Source: Minisyncoccota bacterium (GTDB taxonomy: Bacteria > Patescibacteriota > Minisyncoccia > Phycocordibacterales > UBA9973). Taken from it: 64,000 nucleotides of DNA. The notes below the pieces were generated by a model, which searched no databases, had not been told where the DNA came from, and worked only from the letters and a program-made list of their open reading frames with translations. Location of the stretch: assembly GCA_035994985.1 (NCBI GenBank), contig DASYKZ010000007.1, positions 15,601 through 79,600 of the forward strand, read 5' to 3'. A program made the translations under genes and the position numbers. Position 1 is the first letter of the stretch. Every line of letters starts with the position of its first letter. Below, in pieces: positions 12,621-30,426 of the stretch.

Positions 12621-12716
12621 TTAGTTTATTATAACACTTTCTATATAAATAAATTGATATCAATAGTTTTCACATAGCTCTAAATAACAATCACAATATA
12701 TGTTAATATTAAAAAT

Positions 12717-13826
12717 ATGAAAAAGCTAAAGGTTATATTTGATAATAACTCCCATATAGCCGGCAAAGGAAAGCCTATTTTAGAAATTTTTTCTAATAAT
12801 GTTATTAATCTTAAAAAATTTATATCCAAAAATAATATAAATGAAAGAGTTTCTAGTTGTTTTACTGAAATAATAAAAGAAGAAGGTATTAAAGAACTTC
12901 AAAGACGAGTAATCGCTAGATATCACGATGTTAAAAAATCCGCTGAAGCAATTAAAGGTATCGTTCCAGAAGATTTTATTTCTGAACTTAATGAAGGAGA
13001 ATTAAAAAATAAAATTGAAGAACAATATGATTTAAAATTAAAAGAAAATAATATAGAGATTATACCTCTACCTTCCGAAGCAAAAATATTAGAACTCTCA
13101 GAACGAGCACTTGATTATATACCTCCTTTTGAGATTGGGGATAAAGGTTTTAAGGATACTTTAATTTGGTTGTCTATTCTTGAAGATGCAGAAAAAAATA
13201 AAGACTTTGATTATATTTTTGTAACTGGAGATAAAATCTTTAATGATAGAGTCAAGAATGAGTTCAAGGCAAAACTAGGAAAAAATATTCATATAATTTT
13301 ACCAGAACTTATTGAAGAATCTTTGGATGAAGTTTTGGATTTAGGAATCGGATTAGAAAAAGCTAGAGAAGAAGCAACAAAAGCTTTGAAATTAGATGAG
13401 TCTCTCCAAAGGAAACTAGAGAAGGTTGCATTAGAAGAGCTTGCTCAACCAACCAACGCTCTTTCTCTTATCTTTTATAGTGGTGGGGAAAATAATAAAT
13501 GGGAGTCTAAGGTAGTTAATTTAATTTTCAAAGACGCAAATATAAGTATTAAAAATAAAACCTCAGCAGATACTTTTGAGATAGAGGCAACTATATCTTT
13601 TAAACCTAAATATGAAAAATCTGAAAATGAAGCGGATCAATCTCTTTACGGGGCTACAAGGTCTAATATTACAGTCATGTCTATGTATAACGGAGATAGA
13701 ATCTATTATCCAATTTCATTGAAAAAAACTTTCGACCTTACATATAAAAAAGGCAAAGGCTTTGATATTACGGGTTCTGGTAAAATGTACCCCGATTTTC
13801 CATTCACCATAAATAATTTCTACTAG
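12717..13826 (+). CDS. hypothetical protein with N-terminal PIN-like nuclease-type domain
   Basis: 'VIFDNNSH', 'GDKGFKDTLIWLSILE' and 'YIFVTGDKIFNDRV' show the spacing of conserved PIN acidic residues. AT-rich, Lys-rich; a lone + strand gene in the accessory islet. Confidence 0.45.
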   Translation: MKKLKVIFDNNSHIAGKGKPILEIFSNNVINLKKFISKNNINERVSSCFTEIIKEEGIKELQRRVIARYHDVKKSAEAIKGIVPEDFISELNEGELKNKIEEQYDLKLKENNIEIIPLPSEAKILELSERALDYIPPFEIGDKGFKDTLIWLSILEDAEKNKDFDYIFVTGDKIFNDRVKNEFKAKLGKNIHIILPELIEESLDEVLDLGIGLEKAREEATKALKLDESLQRKLEKVALEELAQPTNALSLIFYSGGENNKWESKVVNLIFKDANISIKNKTSADTFEIEATISFKPKYEKSENEADQSLYGATRSNITVMSMYNGDRIYYPISLKKTFDLTYKKGKGFDITGSGKMYPDFPFTINNFY

Positions 13827-13893
13827 ACTTAATTAAAATGCCAACACTCTAGCAAAATTAGCCAGTTTTGCTACTATTAAAATCTTCTAAAGA

Positions 13894-14565
13894 TTATATT
13901 CTCTTTTTTATCTTACGAGGGTTAGCTTTTTTATATCTACGAGCTTCTTCTTTATTGTCGGCTTCCCAAACTTTATCTCTAAATGATGATAATTGACTAG
14001 CTATTGCGTAATTTTGTCTTATAAATTTCAGTATTATACTAGGAGTAATTTTTATCTTTCTAAAATTCATCCCTAACCCTTCTCTGTTTTCTACACTTTT
14101 GTATCTCACAAAACCAGCTTCATCTAAACTCTGCCAGTTGGCATGAGCAATAATATTTCTAAACTCTGATAATTCAACAAGTTTTAAATAAATTAGCTTT
14201 ATTTCACTAAGTAACTTAGATTGCTTTTTTCCTGTTAAACAATATTTTATAAAAGCAAAATAATCATCCCTTAATAAATCAATCTTCTGTCTAAATTCTA
14301 AATATTTTATTATTCTATAACCAGGTTCATATGCTCTATCACTAATAGCAGTAGCTAAATCCACATCAACTCTGTCTTCTAATGCTGAAAAAGAAATAAC
14401 TAATCTCCCTATTGATCTAGCATATTTTTCTTCAACTTCTTCTATCACTTCGAATTCTCCATTAGTATCTTCTTCATCGTTAGTTCCATACTGACCCATA
14501 TAAGCCGCTTTAATTTCTAGTTTTATTTTTTCCTTTGGTTTTCTCATAACTGGAAATGCTTTCAA
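13894..14565 (-). CDS. hypothetical protein with HEPN-like R-x4-H motif (Abi-like)
   Basis: 223 aa; 'LSEFRNIIAHANWQ' (RNxxxH) sits in a predicted helical context. 10 nt downstream of its partner gene. Confidence 0.4.
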   Translation of the reverse strand: MKAFPVMRKPKEKIKLEIKAAYMGQYGTNDEEDTNGEFEVIEEVEEKYARSIGRLVISFSALEDRVDVDLATAISDRAYEPGYRIIKYLEFRQKIDLLRDDYFAFIKYCLTGKKQSKLLSEIKLIYLKLVELSEFRNIIAHANWQSLDEAGFVRYKSVENREGLGMNFRKIKITPSIILKFIRQNYAIASQLSSFRDKVWEADNKEEARRYKKANPRKIKKRI

Positions 14566-14575
14566 TTAAAGATAA

Positions 14576-15586
14576 TTATGACAAATTATCAAAAAGCCCC
14601 GATTGGTCATCTGGAATAATTTCTTGCTGTTTTTTTACTCTTTCTTTGTGAAAAACAATATCTTCGTTATAACTTTCTACTTCCCTAATGTAAATACTCC
14701 GATTTAACAGTATTCCACCTTTTAAATCACCAGTAATATCAAAAATTACTTTCATGTTATCGCCACTAGCAAATGTTCGTTCTCTTTTATAAGTCTGATC
14801 CTTAAAATCAGGGTCTTGCATATAAAAATCAATGTCTTCACCATTGGTTAAAATTGTTACACTTTCTGAAACTATATTTTCTCCAAAATATGTCCCCCTC
14901 CAAGATATGCCTCTGCCTTCTCTTTTCTGTTTAACTACTGGAGATATTAATTCTATAATGCCATTGGCATTTTCGTAAGAATATTTTTTGTCTAATATCG
15001 GTTCTATATATTTAGGAAAATCCTCTTTTACTATCTTTTTTGAAGAAATAATTTCCCCTTTCGAATCTTTTAAGAGAGTTTCATTATCTTTAATCATATT
15101 ATCTCTTTGCAGGGTGTCGTAAATATTGTTTTTTTTCTTTTTTAAATTTAAGTTTCCACATACCTCAGCTAATTTTTCATCAGGAATATTTTCTATATCA
15201 TAATCTCCCTTGAGTGCTTCCATATTTTGCTTTAATTCTAGGCATTTTGCTGTATCGTCTACAACCCACATATTCTTCTCGTGTAAATGCTCTTCGTGGG
15301 AATCCTTATAATTCAAAACAACAAAGACTAAACCAGCGACAGTAGCAGCAGTTCCTAGCGATACCCCTATTTTATTTTTCTTAATAAATTTTATTATATC
15401 TTTATACGATCCTGGCTCAGAAGGAAGTAAGAAAATTTCAAACTCTTCGTTTGGATATAAAACTTTTGACATTTCTTGGAGCATAGCTACCAAGTCTTCT
15501 GAACATTTATTCCGTGTATTGGCACGGATATAATGATCTGGTACTCCAAAATGGGTTTCTATGGTTATGAAATTTTCAGCTGTCAT
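14576..15586 (-). CDS. hypothetical protein with one internal TM segment; operon partner of the HEPN-like gene
   Basis: 336 aa with a TM helix GVSLGTAATVAGLVFVVL; no recognisable catalytic motif. Confidence 0.45.
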   Translation of the reverse strand: MTAENFITIETHFGVPDHYIRANTRNKCSEDLVAMLQEMSKVLYPNEEFEIFLLPSEPGSYKDIIKFIKKNKIGVSLGTAATVAGLVFVVLNYKDSHEEHLHEKNMWVVDDTAKCLELKQNMEALKGDYDIENIPDEKLAEVCGNLNLKKKKNNIYDTLQRDNMIKDNETLLKDSKGEIISSKKIVKEDFPKYIEPILDKKYSYENANGIIELISPVVKQKREGRGISWRGTYFGENIVSESVTILTNGEDIDFYMQDPDFKDQTYKRERTFASGDNMKVIFDITGDLKGGILLNRSIYIREVESYNEDIVFHKERVKKQQEIIPDDQSGLFDNLS

Positions 15587-15800
15587 AGTTATAATTATTT
15601 TCTATAATCTGAATAATTTTTTCTTGTAACAAGATTTTTAGTTGGAATCTTTTTGTTCCTATTCCTTAATTTCTACCATAAAATTTCTAGTTTTACAAGA
15701 CTAACCACGATATTTGCAAAATGAAATTGGGACTATGATAAAATGTATATAGTTGATAGAAATATTAACCAGTAGAGAGTAATGTAATAGCGCGTTCTAG

Positions 15801-15853
15801 AACCTTTTCAAGAGCGCACAACTACACTGTGCTCTACTGAAAAGGTTTTTTGT
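15801..15853 (+). terminator. strong intrinsic-terminator-like hairpin (17-18 bp stem + T-run)
   Basis: aaccttttcaagagcgcaca / tgtgctctactgaaaaggtt followed by ttttttg. A promoter-like TTGCAA (15714-15719) with a -10-like element lies ~100 nt upstream. Confidence 0.55.
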
Positions 15854-16315
15854 TATCTTGCCTCATTGTTAGGAATGAGGGTTATACTGGAGGGCTAGGC
15901 TACGTTACCAACACTGGGCCTCCTCTGGATGCGATATAAACAAGTGTTGGCTGACGAATAGCTAAGCGTCTATTATCTTAGCCAAGGGAGTCTGATTGTA
16001 AAGAGATTTATTAGCAGACATCCTTGTAGGTCAGTGTCTCATAGTGGATGTAGTCAATCGACAAGCCACAAAGGGAAAAAGGAGTACATGTATGTGCTAG
16101 AAAGTCCGTTTTGACGGACACATACAGAGACAGATTCAATCAGGAGTAATTCCCTGAAAAAGCTAGATTGATAAATCACTTCCGAGAGAAAACGGAATCA
16201 CGTGATGATACTGACAAGTAGGAAACGAACGTTATCTTTGATATGGTCAAAATATTTAATAAAAACACGCTTAACCTTTCAACAGGAGTTCCCAGTATAG
16301 GAGTATCAAGATGAA

Positions 16316-16576
16316 ATGGAAACTTTGGAAATTGAGCTTTCAGAACATACGAAAGCAGATTACGATTACCAAACAACTGTTGCTATGGTTATTTCTGTAG
16401 CACGTAGAGCAAAAGAAATATTTGAAAAAAGTTCTGACACGGCCGGAAAAAGAGCATTTTTAAATTCTTTGCTTCAGAACCCTACCATAAATGGAAAAAA
16501 GCTAGATTTTACAATAGCTTCTCCATATAATCTTGTACTAGAATTAGCTGATCACCCTAACTGGCTCCGGGGGTAG
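16316..16576 (+). CDS. small hypothetical ORF (86 aa) ending inside the 3' end of tRNA-Asn on the opposite strand; possibly an element remnant or non-coding
   Basis: ORF with K/E-rich composition. An in-frame stop lies immediately upstream, and the ORF overlaps the tRNA by 15 nt. Confidence 0.2.
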   Translation: METLEIELSEHTKADYDYQTTVAMVISVARRAKEIFEKSSDTAGKRAFLNSLLQNPTINGKKLDFTIASPYNLVLELADHPNWLRG

Positions 16577-16636
16577 GGATCGAACCTACGACCAATCGCT
16601 TAACAGGCGACCGCTCTACCACTGAGCTACCCCGGA
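16562..16636 (-). tRNA. tRNA-Asn (anticodon GTT), CCA encoded
   Basis: The reverse complement tccggggtagctcagtggtagagcggtcgcctgttaagcgattggtcgtaggttcgatccctacccccggagcca folds as a cloverleaf with anticodon loop cuGUUaa. Confidence 0.85.
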
Positions 16637-16738
16637 ATATTTACCATAGTAGCAGAAATGAGCGAAAAAACAACTAAGAAGTTAGGGGCAATTTGCATTA
16701 TTGATAAAATAATATAGAATATTGAAGTTGATATGTTT

Positions 16739-22221: not shown

Positions 22222-22983
22222 TTATAGGGCCTTTATTTTATCCTTTATACTTTGAGATAAGTCTCTTGGCCAGCAAATAAACTCCTTAATCTTTTTAATA
22301 TCAAACACAAAGGTTCCCGTTTCATCTAATTCAGTAGAGACTTTACCGGAAGTTGCAAAAATTACTGCATTTTTCCCATCACTTCTTATCTGATTTACGG
22401 GACCCGCGAAATCACTATCTACACTCCATAATATGTAGTTATTGATTCCATCATTGTCAAAATCTCTGAGCATATCTCTACCCATTTCAACATCAAAATT
22501 ACACTTTTGTTCTTCTATCTCAAAAATTCCTTGCTTATTAAAGATCTCTAGTTTTCCATTTAGATATTCTATAGTTTCTATAGCTAGCTTTGATAAAAGA
22601 CTTTTCTTTATAAAATTTTTCAATATACTTGGAGAATTTTTAGGAATACTGGACATATCAATAGGTATCCTCATTAATTTTACTGGTTTAGTAGTAACAC
22701 TATAACCCATAGCTTCCAACTCTGGAATACAATCTTCAGATTGTTGATTACCTTCTAAGGTTCCAGTGTAAATTTTAACAGAATTTATTGTATCAAAAGA
22801 ATCAAATAACTGTTTCATTCTTTTTAAATCTATGTTCCACTTTAGTTTGTCTTGCCAATGTATGACATTAGACCAATCAATATAAATGTTTGTAGGACCA
22901 TCAAAAATTTTCTCCAAATCTGATATAACTTTGGGAAATAATTTTGCTAACTTTTCAATTCTGTCTGTTTTTGGTATAAACAT
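22222..22983 (-). CDS. NYN/LabA-like (PIN-fold) nuclease domain protein
   Basis: 'NIYIDWSNVIHW' (beta1 Asp), 'CNFDVEMGRDML' and 'YILWSVDSDFAGPVNQIRSDGKNAVIFAT' fit the NYN pattern (D…D-x-D…SGD-DF…G-x-V). Confidence 0.6.
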   Translation of the reverse strand: MFIPKTDRIEKLAKLFPKVISDLEKIFDGPTNIYIDWSNVIHWQDKLKWNIDLKRMKQLFDSFDTINSVKIYTGTLEGNQQSEDCIPELEAMGYSVTTKPVKLMRIPIDMSSIPKNSPSILKNFIKKSLLSKLAIETIEYLNGKLEIFNKQGIFEIEEQKCNFDVEMGRDMLRDFDNDGINNYILWSVDSDFAGPVNQIRSDGKNAVIFATSGKVSTELDETGTFVFDIKKIKEFICWPRDLSQSIKDKIKAL

Positions 22984-22986
22984 AAA

Positions 22987-23568
22987 TTATTCTTTCGTCT
23001 CATTAATTTCTTCTACTAAAACTTCTTCTTTGCAGTATTTTTCTGAAAACTCCTTTAATTCAGTTTTAATGTCTTTGAGTTCACCATCCATTATTGCTTC
23101 CGTAGTTTCTGGAGTTTTAGGGATAAGTAATTTCACCCTCCTAAATTCAAATGTATGGTAAGAATTATTTACATTTATATCTTCCTCATTTACTACATTA
23201 GTCTTTCCTTGATTGTTATTAAACGTTTTTACCATCTTTTTTGTACGTGTAACAATTTTTGGAGACCAGTTTGCCATTTTTGCTGCATCTGACCCATACT
23301 TCTCGTATTCATTGATAACTTTTATTACTCGAGATTTATAAGTAGCCAAAGAACCGGCACTAAATTTCCCTTTTGCAAAAATGCTGTTTGAAATTTGTCC
23401 AATATTTTTCTTAACTTCATTTATAGACTTAACTTCTTCCTCATTTAATTCTTCCTCAAATAACTTCAGGGCTGTCTTAAGAGCAGACCCTGTATTTTCA
23501 GGGTATTTGCGACTCTTTACAGCCCTGTTAATAAAATCATATAAATTTTTAAAATTTTGTTTTTCCAT
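22987..23568 (-). CDS. hypothetical protein, operon partner upstream of the NYN gene (3-nt gap)
   Basis: 193 aa, K/E-rich, no recognisable motif. Confidence 0.5.
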   Translation of the reverse strand: MEKQNFKNLYDFINRAVKSRKYPENTGSALKTALKLFEEELNEEEVKSINEVKKNIGQISNSIFAKGKFSAGSLATYKSRVIKVINEYEKYGSDAAKMANWSPKIVTRTKKMVKTFNNNQGKTNVVNEEDINVNNSYHTFEFRRVKLLIPKTPETTEAIMDGELKDIKTELKEFSEKYCKEEVLVEEINETKE

Positions 23569-29566: not shown

Positions 29567-29642
29567 GCCGGAATAGCTCAGTTGGTAGAGCAACACTTTT
29601 GTAAAGTGAAGGTCGTGGGTTCGAATCCCTCTTCCGGCTCCA
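29567..29642 (+). tRNA. tRNA-Thr (anticodon TGT), CCA encoded
   Basis: gccggaatagctcagttggtagagcaacacttttgtaaagtgaaggtcgtgggttcgaatccctcttccggctcca; anticodon loop uuUGUaa. Confidence 0.8.
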
Positions 29643-29658
29643 GAATAAAACTAAAAAA

Positions 29659-30426
29659 ATGGAAACCCCAGAACCATTAACCCCTAAAATAAATCCAAAT
29701 AAGGTTGAAGCCAATAATCAATATCCTAGTGAAGAAGTATTTAAGGCTTATATAGAAGGCAACTCAAGAATACCTCAAATATTTGCTGGAATAACTATTT
29801 TCACTCTCGCTGCAGTTTTAGAAGAATCAAATGTAGAATGGGAAAAATTTTTTAATTCTAAATTTTCTGATGCACAAATTGAACACTTAAAGACTTTAAT
29901 GAATCGTATGCATCACAAAAAATCAATTTCGGCAGCTACATCCGATCATAAAAAATATGTAGACGGGAAGAACTTTGATAAAAAAATAAAGGTAATCAGT
30001 GAAATAGATATTGGTACACTTTGGGAAAATGTAGTACATAATAATATTGCTTATGCGCTCTCACAATGTTTGCAATCTTTAGATCCAGATTATGCACAAA
30101 CTTTTAAAAATAAAGGTGCTTTTAGAAAAATTGATGAAGCTGATTTTATAAGTTATTTATCGGATATAAAAAATAAGCCAGTTCTAAATGAGGCGAAAAA
30201 AATATTTACAGCAATAAGAGACGCTCTGCGTTCTGAAGCTGCGGATGAATTATTTAAAAATTGGCGAGAAGAGTTTGATTTCAGTAAGCCCGAAAACAAG
30301 GGTAACAGTACAAAAACATGGTACCAAAAAGGTTACCGCACTAAAATTTCTGAAGTTATTGTTTCGTACCTAAGAAGCCAAAGACCCGATATTTCGACAG
30401 ATTTAGTGGAGTCAATCTGGGGATAA
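29659..30426 (+). CDS. hypothetical protein (AT-rich gene immediately 3' of tRNA-Thr)
   Basis: 255 aa, no recognisable motif. Confidence 0.5.
   Translation: METPEPLTPKINPNKVEANNQYPSEEVFKAYIEGNSRIPQIFAGITIFTLAAVLEESNVEWEKFFNSKFSDAQIEHLKTLMNRMHHKKSISAATSDHKKYVDGKNFDKKIKVISEIDIGTLWENVVHNNIAYALSQCLQSLDPDYAQTFKNKGAFRKIDEADFISYLSDIKNKPVLNEAKKIFTAIRDALRSEAADELFKNWREEFDFSKPENKGNSTKTWYQKGYRTKISEVIVSYLRSQRPDISTDLVESIWG

Follow-up and report, generated by a model that had tools for sequence, protein, structure and literature searches.

A low-GC islet of candidate defence genes near a recombinase remnant at tRNA-Asn in a Patescibacteria genome

Patescibacteria, or CPR bacteria, have tiny genomes, and their resistance to phages is little understood. 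A short AT-rich region near a tRNA-Asn gene in a Candidatus Paceibacterota genome of this group raises the question of how such resistance might be encoded. Within a 64-kb window (the whole stretch of DNA that was analysed), genes for a PIN-like protein, a HEPN-like protein and a protein with a hydrophobic helix lie close together. An earlier note took them for a candidate defence or abortive-infection locus and, possibly, for an undescribed gene combination. Do the pair or the trio act as a new multi-gene system, or is this an ordinary defence islet? All the features listed in that note are present in the sequence, namely the PIN gene, the 336-aa gene, the minus-strand ORF 13894-14565, an 86-aa ORF, the tRNA-Asn gene and an ORF-poor tract. 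The ordinary islet is the probable answer, because three separately mobile candidate genes lie beside an integrase stump at tRNA-Asn.

Base composition delimits the islet. The low-GC block has a GC content of 0.293, the lowest of any 3.1-kb stretch in the window, against a window mean of 0.411 and a value of 0.354 for the runner-up that does not overlap it. This AT-richness is greater than chance would produce, and the analysis supports the view that the islet is compositionally foreign. The proposed AT-rich islet of about 4 kb is thus foreign in composition but shorter than was thought, as the low GC stops near 15760, short of the tRNA, and positions 15761-16300 have a backbone-like GC of 0.40. 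Contigs that carry the flanking inositol-phosphate synthase gene are all identical to the window. The features of the locus, and the settings in which homologues of its genes occur elsewhere, are collected in Table 1.

Table 1. Features of the islet and its tRNA-proximal flank (window positions), followed by gene contexts at homologous loci (L numbers).
Feature	Position or locus	Strand	Basis
Low-GC accessory block carrying the three candidate genes	12621..15760		GC scan of window
Solitary PIN_12/DUF4935 protein, 369 aa	12717..13826	+	Pfam PF16289 match
Short AT-rich hairpin with a stem of 8 bp, separating the PIN gene from the convergent HEPN-like gene	13850..13873		Read from sequence
HEPN-like protein, 217 aa, of an unclassified CPR-restricted family; motif ELSEFRNxxAHANW	13894..14547	-	Homologue alignment
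PDC-S42-family protein, 336 aa	14576..15586	-	PADLOC profile match
Very AT-rich region upstream of the 336-aa/217-aa operon	15587..15660	-	Read from sequence
Long imperfect hairpin, then TTTTTGTT, terminator-like, where the low-GC block ends	15770..15855	+	Inverted repeats I2, I25
Non-coding tract with strongly predicted structure, GC 0.40	15857..16300	+	Folding z-scores
Last ~90 codons of a large serine recombinase gene (C-terminal stump)	16301..16576	+	Homologue search, tblastn
tRNA-Asn (GTT), intact	16562..16636	-	ARAGORN; Rfam tRNA, 71.8 bits
336-aa gene between hsdS and hsdR	L001, L005, L007, L071, L072/73, probably L006		
336-aa gene beside SNF2/PLD helicase and Eco57I-type methyltransferase	L056		
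336-aa gene beside ResIII and DUF6119	L093/94		
336-aa gene with Type III R-M system, OLD nuclease and nSTAND3	L074		
336-aa gene with large serine recombinase, NOV_C and SLFN_AlbA_2	L057		
HEPN-like gene after PDC-S54 gene	L043		
HEPN-like gene after tRNA genes	L047, L049		
HEPN-like gene within cluster of toxin-like genes	L048		

Over its full length, the 336-aa protein belongs to PDC-S42, a family found embedded in restriction systems and, for that reason, entered in PADLOC as a single-gene candidate for phage defence. It matches profile PDLC05016 with an E value of 9e-29 and 98.9 bits (residues 7-332, profile positions 11-317 of 320), and all 30 of its aligned homologues match the PDC-S42 model as well, likewise full-length (best E 9.5e-33). 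It was therefore wrong to say that no named defence family is represented among the proteins. Guilt-by-embedding, with BREX, DISARM and Type I R-M as the host systems, is how the candidate PDC families were defined (Payne et al.; bioRxiv 10.1101/2024.01.29.577857); a literature search found no mention of PDC-S42 in any paper. From the N-terminus, the protein consists of a small alpha/beta domain, a hydrophobic helix, a helical region and, at the C-terminus, a beta domain that weakly resembles the OB fold. The helix had been described as a central transmembrane segment; it is indeed present and hydrophobic, but it occupies residues 73-91, in the N-terminal third. A clearly hydrophobic helix characterises the CPR branch of PDC-S42, and distant homologues from Parabacteroides are without one.

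A context survey of this family covered 14 independent loci with adequate flanks. At six of them, all in CPR bacteria, hsdS and hsdR flank the gene within a Type I restriction operon, an arrangement that is the defining PDC pattern. The copy in the window differs in this respect: no restriction system was found near it, so that the embedding holds for the family and not for this copy, and the HEPN-like gene comes next instead. The prrC gene of the prr locus also sits between hsdS and hsdR, and the 336-aa gene takes the same position in the six CPR loci. However, the 336-aa protein has neither an ABC-ATPase nor an anticodon-nuclease domain, and restriction genes are absent from its neighbourhood in the window, so its likeness to PrrC/RloC-type effectors is one of position and not of family. 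The gene may best be viewed as a separate module, a candidate anti-phage gene whose PDC-S42-family product carries a single hydrophobic helix.

The HEPN-like protein had been given as 223 aa (13894-14565). Its start is the ATG at 14547 and its length 217 aa, because MRKPKEK is the N-terminus conserved in all homologues. The R-x4-H motif reported for it is present as R130-N-I-I-A-H135, and R, N and H are invariant among 34 sequences. The window protein has no match in Pfam, NCBIfam, PADLOC or PHROG. Some family members show sub-threshold matches to HEPN_Cthe2314 (four members), HEPN_MAE_28990, Abi_2 and HEPN_Swt1, and seven members do so to Csx1/Csm6 HEPN models. The HEPN assignment is thus favoured by the invariant motif and by these signals, but no HEPN family model is matched at threshold; convergent but weak, the evidence suggests a HEPN-like family. 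Single-gene HEPN abortive-infection proteins (AbiD/F-type Abi_2, AbiV, HEC-08) are set apart from the 217-aa protein by its failure to reach any HEPN model threshold, by its conserved basic N-terminus (MRKPKEK...GQYG) and by a beta-hairpin insertion at residues 146-166. By analogy with these proteins, the 217-aa protein is predicted to use a dimeric Rx4H site for metal-independent RNA cleavage.

The arrangement of the two genes invites the idea of a two-component abortive-infection system, in which the 336-aa membrane protein would sense infection at the envelope and release or activate the HEPN RNase. The 217-aa gene starts 28 nt past the stop of the 336-aa gene; with this spacing, a shared orientation and no terminator found between them, the two are probably co-transcribed. 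The AT-rich region upstream may hold the operon promoter; consensus promoter matches in it are no more frequent than in shuffled sequences. Order and orientation of the pair are repeated at L056 (TM336-HEPN-wHTH), yet L056 and the window are the only two of the 14 loci with adequate flanks where the genes adjoin. Moreover, the relative L094 has the order TM336-wHTH, the HEPN-like gene being absent between the same flanking genes (L093/L094), and the wHTH proteins of L056 and L094 are homologous (E 3e-38). At 42 loci examined in genomes, the 336-aa family was never accompanied by a HEPN-like homologue, and at 13 loci in metagenomes the HEPN-like family was never accompanied by a 336-aa homologue; the HEPN-like family occurs without the 336-aa gene in at least 15 loci. 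The PADLOC model of PDC-S42 likewise describes a single-gene candidate. Some room for a looser TM-plus-HEPN association is left because RNxxxH-motif proteins flank the 336-aa gene elsewhere (a convergent 158-aa protein in L057 and a 287-aa protein in L072/73), but profile comparison gives no support for kinship of either neighbour with the 217-aa family. A two-component system is unlikely on this record, and the suggestion of an undescribed combination acting as a system finds no support. To judge from the compared loci, the 336-aa and 217-aa genes appear to be independent cassettes rather than an obligate pair, and their adjacency in the window would stem from the insertion of a gene cassette.

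The PIN-like call is confirmed by Pfam, in which PIN_12 (PF16289) is matched with an E value of 4.3e-15 and 57 bits, above the gathering score of 32, over residues 29-174 (profile positions 21-171 of 172). In an alignment of 11 sequences, D9, N11, E56, D142 and D147 are invariant; the four acidic residues among them probably form the conserved active site and would map onto canonical PIN positions. The N-terminal VapC-like PIN domain precedes a C-terminal region with no assigned domain. This layout, including the conserved acidic residues, is common to the DUF4935/PIN_12 group of VapC-like PIN proteins, which are likewise about 350-380 aa long and monocistronic (Matelska et al. 2017, PMC5499597). 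DUF4935 genes are usually monocistronic (PMC5499597), and the window protein, a CPR member, shows no material difference from the group. It is thus predicted to be a monocistronic VapC-like metal-dependent nuclease. Homologues are solitary and their contexts varied, with an SduA_C protein and a resolvase among the neighbours; across the homologue loci of all three families, the PIN gene is never linked to the 336-aa or 217-aa gene elsewhere. The hairpin that separates it from the HEPN-like gene in the window may be a bidirectional terminator; a terminator scan did not detect it.

A nuclease gene of either type could also encode the toxin of an addiction module. The PIN and HEPN-like genes would then be parts of toxin-antitoxin modules that stabilise the islet or bring about stress dormancy, rather than phage defence. 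This is quite unlikely, as neither an MNT nucleotidyltransferase nor a VapB-like small gene adjoins the PIN or HEPN-like gene in the window or in homologous loci, and the 369-aa PIN_12 architecture is unlike that of a VapC toxin of about 130 aa.

The other end of the locus bears on how the islet may have formed. The 86-aa ORF (16316-16576, plus strand) overlaps the 3' end of tRNA-Asn by 15 nt and has 572 homologues. Full-length homologues measure 501-519 aa and carry Resolvase and Recombinase domains, with Zn_ribbon_recom in four of five, and they align with the ORF only over their last ~85 residues. Recombinase homology detected by tblastn runs from 16301 to 16597, and the same search found no N-terminal remnant or catalytic domain of a recombinase anywhere in the window. 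The alignments identify the ORF as the probable C-terminal remnant of a large serine recombinase of about 510 aa, marking a decayed integration site. In the IMG/VR contigs L081 and L082, too, the gene of a full-length recombinase relative overlaps a tRNA, 3' end with 3' end, and the recombinase relatives P0145, P0147 and P0129 have read-through C-termini and tRNA-overlap geometry. The islet resembles tRNA islands and prophages of large serine recombinases in that a probable recombinase remnant converges on the tRNA and overlaps its 3' end, and in that a cargo of foreign composition lies beside the site. It differs in retaining only the last ~90 recombinase codons and in having no att repeat. 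Integration at the tRNA 3' end, as proposed earlier, agrees with the stump that abuts tRNA-Asn, but a search for a direct repeat of the 3' segment of this tRNA was negative: no second copy with three or fewer mismatches exists, and even the closest partial matches are no better than chance. Similarly, the left end of the islet has no att-type repeat, and no second boundary is detectable. The element at tRNA-Asn has decayed and is incapable of autonomous movement. Its stump may be linked to the arrival of the low-GC genes; the three genes may not have arrived with the recombinase, because 540 nt of GC-normal DNA separate the block from the stump.

That intervening DNA belongs to a non-coding tract of about 730 bp (15587-16315), in which the sole ORF of at least 50 aa is a 66-aa TTG ORF on the minus strand. 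The description of the tract as hairpin-dense is borne out by folding: the hairpin region 15745-15860 (plus strand) folds with -33.6 kcal/mol (z -4.1), and 15857-16300 folds with -132 kcal/mol on the plus strand, a z-score of -4.8, against -3.7 for the minus strand. For 15857-16300, Rfam gave matches at noise level only, and no similar DNA was present in the retrieved homologue loci or phage records. A more far-reaching reading combines this structure with the genes. The PDC-S42-like membrane protein would work with interchangeable HEPN-type RNases (the 217-aa family in the window and L056, unrelated RNxxxH-motif proteins in L057 and L072) as a modular envelope-sensing CPR abortive-infection system, and 15745-16300 would be a new non-coding RNA controlling the system or the integration site. 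That all of this holds together is very unlikely.

That the three are housekeeping genes particular to the lineage (RNA-processing factors, for example), with a low GC that is gene-specific and not foreign, is most improbable. In favour of this reading, one group of PIN_12 homologues reproducibly follows ftsI in a division/cell-wall gene cluster (L064-L067), and the distant PDC-S42 homologues of Parabacteroides have metabolic genes around them in ordinary-looking neighbourhoods. Against it, the three families are patchy (12, 43 and 51 clusters of homologues among 5.8 billion), their neighbours change between genomes, restriction operons repeatedly enclose the 336-aa gene, and the window reaches its lowest GC in the islet. 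The non-housekeeping setting first suggested is accordingly upheld, homologues of all three genes occurring in variable contexts, often with restriction or defence genes, and not in conserved housekeeping positions.

The reading preferred here, with reasonable though incomplete confidence, is a small accessory defence islet of three separately acquired modules, most likely acting separately, at a tRNA-Asn site that once received a recombinase-mobilised element. The mobilising enzyme would have been a large serine recombinase, whose surviving codons would now be fused onto the tRNA-Asn 3' end. The analysis establishes the base composition, the family memberships, the varied gene neighbourhoods, the gain or loss of the HEPN-like gene between shared flanks and the recombinase stump; nuclease activity and an anti-phage function are predictions, as are co-transcription and a link of the stump to the low-GC genes. 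As a candidate defence locus, the region thus keeps the PDC-S42 candidate family and the restriction and defence contexts of homologues, but not a pair or trio forming a distinct system. Patescibacteria are reported to favour compact single-gene defence systems (PMC12988326). The islet reveals no new kind of system or mechanism. Together with its relatives, it shows that PDC-S42, a candidate family of PADLOC, is widely distributed among CPR bacteria and lies repeatedly inside Type I restriction operons there. It also brings to light a HEPN-like family, unclassified so far, with the behaviour of a single-gene cassette. The two families offer concrete, compact targets for functional tests.

The low-GC islet beside tRNA-Asn is not a new multi-gene system but a group of three single-gene modules, each a candidate for defence or toxin function and each mobile on its own, next to a decayed serine-recombinase site. 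It is compositionally foreign: of all 3.1-kb stretches in the window it has the lowest GC (window mean 0.411; 0.354 in the lowest non-overlapping stretch), and its composition is uniform over the three genes (0.29-0.32). Backbone-like values return at 15761-16300 (0.40) and in the 86-aa ORF (0.37), so the foreign-looking block ends about 800 nt before tRNA-Asn. The positions reported earlier for the ORFs and tRNAs are confirmed in the sequence. The contig derives from the metagenome-assembled genome of a Candidatus Paceibacterota (CPR) bacterium, with exact proteins listed at NCBI as loci VGO63_00975 and VGO63_00970. A strain lacking the islet was not found among contigs retrieved via the flanking genes, which match the window at 100% identity.

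Features in the window and genomic contexts of homologous genes (L, fetched comparison loci)
Feature	Position or locus	Description
Low-GC islet	12621-15760	GC 0.293
PIN gene	12717-13826 (+)	PIN_12/DUF4935
HEPN-like gene	13894-14547 (-)	217 aa
336-aa gene	14576-15586 (-)	PDC-S42
Non-coding tract	15745-16300	about 550 nt, backbone-like GC, predicted structure z -4.1 and -4.8 (+ strand)
Hairpin	15770-15855 (+)	long, followed by T-run, at edge of low-GC block
Structured segment	15857-16300	folding against shuffled sequence, z -4.8 (+ strand) and -3.7 (- strand)
86-aa ORF	16316-16576 (+)	overlaps 3′ end of tRNA-Asn
tRNA-Asn	16562-16636 (-)	
Second low-GC patch	22222-23568	GC about 0.31, between tRNA-guanine transglycosylase and mreC genes
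tRNA-Thr and 255-aa ORF	29567-30426	low-GC ORF after the tRNA
336-aa family	L001, L005, L007, L071, L072/73, probably L006	between hsdS and hsdR in Type I operons
336-aa family	L056	adjoins SNF2/PLD helicase and Eco57I-type methyltransferase
336-aa family	L093/94	after ResIII and DUF6119
336-aa family	L074	island with Type III R-M system, OLD-type nuclease and nSTAND3
336-aa family	L057	beside full-length large serine recombinase, NOV_C and SLFN_AlbA_2
HEPN-like gene	L043 1-1171	start overlaps end of PDC-S54 gene
HEPN-like gene	L047, L049	after tRNA-Glu or tRNA-Ala
HEPN-like gene	L048	cluster with ImmA/IrrE-like, PIN-like, nucleotidyltransferase-like and LabA/NYN-like proteins (read from the sequences, not from family search)

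The earlier note recognised no named family among the islet proteins. The 336-aa protein is in fact a full-length match to the PADLOC family PDC-S42 (E 9e-29), whose model is also matched by all 30 aligned homologues, and its hydrophobic helix, previously described as central, lies at residues 73-91. PDC families comprise 145 untested candidates for phage defence (bioRxiv 10.1101/2024.01.29.577857), and the basis for their definition is that they lie within BREX, DISARM or Type I restriction systems; PDC-S42 itself is not mentioned in any paper found by literature search. The contexts of the 336-aa family listed in the table come from the 14 independent loci whose flanks could be used. Its distant relatives in Parabacteroides (20-24% identity) have no clearly hydrophobic segment, and the genes around them look ordinary. 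Among solved structures, neither the 336-aa nor the 217-aa family has a sequence match.

PDC candidate families are found clustered at two loci. In L071 (5001-6965), the gene after the PDC-S42-like one encodes a PDC-S32 protein, in a Type I operon that also has an AAA_21 ATPase and RloB, and in L043 PDC-S54 accompanies a homologue of the HEPN-like protein. In the patescibacterial locus L006 (7700-13100), HsdS-like and HsdR-like frames around the PDC-S42-like gene are split into short ORFs under code 11, which points to an alternative genetic code or to pseudogenes.

MRKPKEK, the conserved N-terminus of its family, places the start of the HEPN-like gene at ATG 14547, and this shortens the protein from the 223 aa first assigned. 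Its family consists of 43 clusters, all CPR or metagenomic in source, in which E57 and the RNxxxH (Rx4H) residues R130, N131 and H135 are invariant. The protein has no match at threshold in any profile library scanned. Seven family members give sub-threshold Pfam matches to four HEPN families, and seven weakly match the Csx1/Csm6 HEPN models of PADLOC. The structure model (pLDDT 82) shows long helices into which a beta-hairpin is inserted, and its Foldseek comparison with the PDB returned nothing significant for a HEPN fold. These convergent but weak fold signals point to a probable new, unclassified family of the HEPN superfamily. By analogy, the protein would be a metal-independent RNase active as a dimer.

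A gap of 28 nt separates the stop codon of the 336-aa gene from the start of the HEPN-like gene, and the two had been proposed to form part of an undescribed gene combination. They are seldom together, however, which argues against a system: no member of the 217-aa family is encoded at the 42 genome loci that carry the 336-aa family, and no member of the 336-aa family at the 13 metagenome loci of the 217-aa family, whose gene is also found solitary. The only other co-occurrence is in L056, with order and orientation as in the window. In L056, the HEPN-like gene sits between the 336-aa gene and a winged-helix gene homologous (E 3e-38) to the Pro-rich winged-helix gene that directly follows the 336-aa gene in L093/94, a close relative of L056. 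The two loci (L056 6573-9065 and L094 2518-4171) thus differ by the presence or absence of this single gene within the same flanks, which indicates a cassette that comes and goes. There is a residual hint of a looser association between the 336-aa gene and HEPN-type proteins, as RNxxxH-motif proteins flank it in L057 (158 aa) and L072 (287 aa). Profile comparison did not support kinship of these proteins with the 217-aa family, and was likewise not significant for a 343-aa RNxxxH protein of L046. A phage or plasmid origin of the two genes finds no support, with no relatives of either protein in IMG/VR and none of the 336-aa protein in PLSDB.

The PIN protein matches Pfam PIN_12/DUF4935 at 57 bits, above the threshold of 32, and in 11 homologues its residues D9, N11, E56, D142 and D147 do not vary. 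The literature describes this family as VapC-like and mostly monocistronic, with no known function (PMC5499597). The homologues found form only 12 clusters, each solitary and in varying neighbourhoods: after ftsI, beside an SduA_C protein and a resolvase, or after uvrB. None of the homologues examined is linked to the 336-aa or 217-aa families.

The 86-aa ORF is a gene fragment rather than a separate small gene. It has 572 homologues, and the full-length ones (501-519 aa) carry Resolvase and Recombinase domains, with Zn_ribbon_recom in four of five scanned. Their alignment with the ORF is confined to the last ~85 residues, and their C-termini translate tRNA-like sequence (...LRGRGSNPR). Recombinase homology begins abruptly at 16301 and continues past the stop codon into tRNA-Asn, to 16597, and tblastn with full-length relatives found no N-terminal remnant anywhere in the window. 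This C-terminal-only homology at the tRNA marks the ORF as an integrase stump at a former integration site. The earlier suggestion of integration at tRNA-Asn gains support from this, but no direct repeat of the tRNA 3′ end was found that would serve as the other att site and mark a second boundary. Given the GC-normal spacer, the three low-GC genes may or may not have arrived with the recombinase element. IMG/VR viral contigs hold relatives of the recombinase at about 30% identity. The same convergent geometry is seen in L081 (9452-9526) and L082 (7319-7393), where a full-length recombinase gene and the 3′ end of tRNA-Gln share ~22 nt. Short proteins that match nothing but the C-terminal ~85 residues of a large serine recombinase are very common (homologues P0107-P0256), with 129 matches at E ≤1e-10, most of them <250 aa. 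Recombinase genes ending inside tRNA genes, and truncated stumps, appear to be recurrent in these genomes.

Candidate explanations for the non-coding tract before the stump are a CPR non-coding RNA not yet recognised and a relic of the decayed element. Rfam returned noise only (LOOT, 21 bits; gathering score, 46), and the 94 fetched loci, phage records and one exact-pattern scan of viral contigs yielded no similar DNA. The region 15587-16300 is not what remains of the 5′ portion of the recombinase gene, as tblastn homology starts only at 16301; an unrelated recombinase from L057 gave no match either. In the Logan assembly of SRR11678609, two contigs, otherwise 100% identical to the window, end within the tract at 16052 and 16076 with a 25-nt overlap. 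This suggests an assembly-graph branch and possible strain variation.

Two further candidate inserts were observed in the window. The second low-GC patch holds an NYN-domain protein (Pfam, 54 bits; PADLOC NYN; weak similarity to HEC-09) beside a 193-aa protein that matches no family, and is possibly a further small insert of toxin or defence type. The 255-aa ORF after tRNA-Thr, with no Pfam match and a negligible PADLOC match only, may be another tRNA-adjacent accessory gene.

Patescibacteria are reported to prefer compact single-gene systems (PMC12988326), a preference that the single-gene modules of the islet fit. The islet adds CPR members to PDC-S42 and PIN_12, together with an unclassified HEPN-like family.
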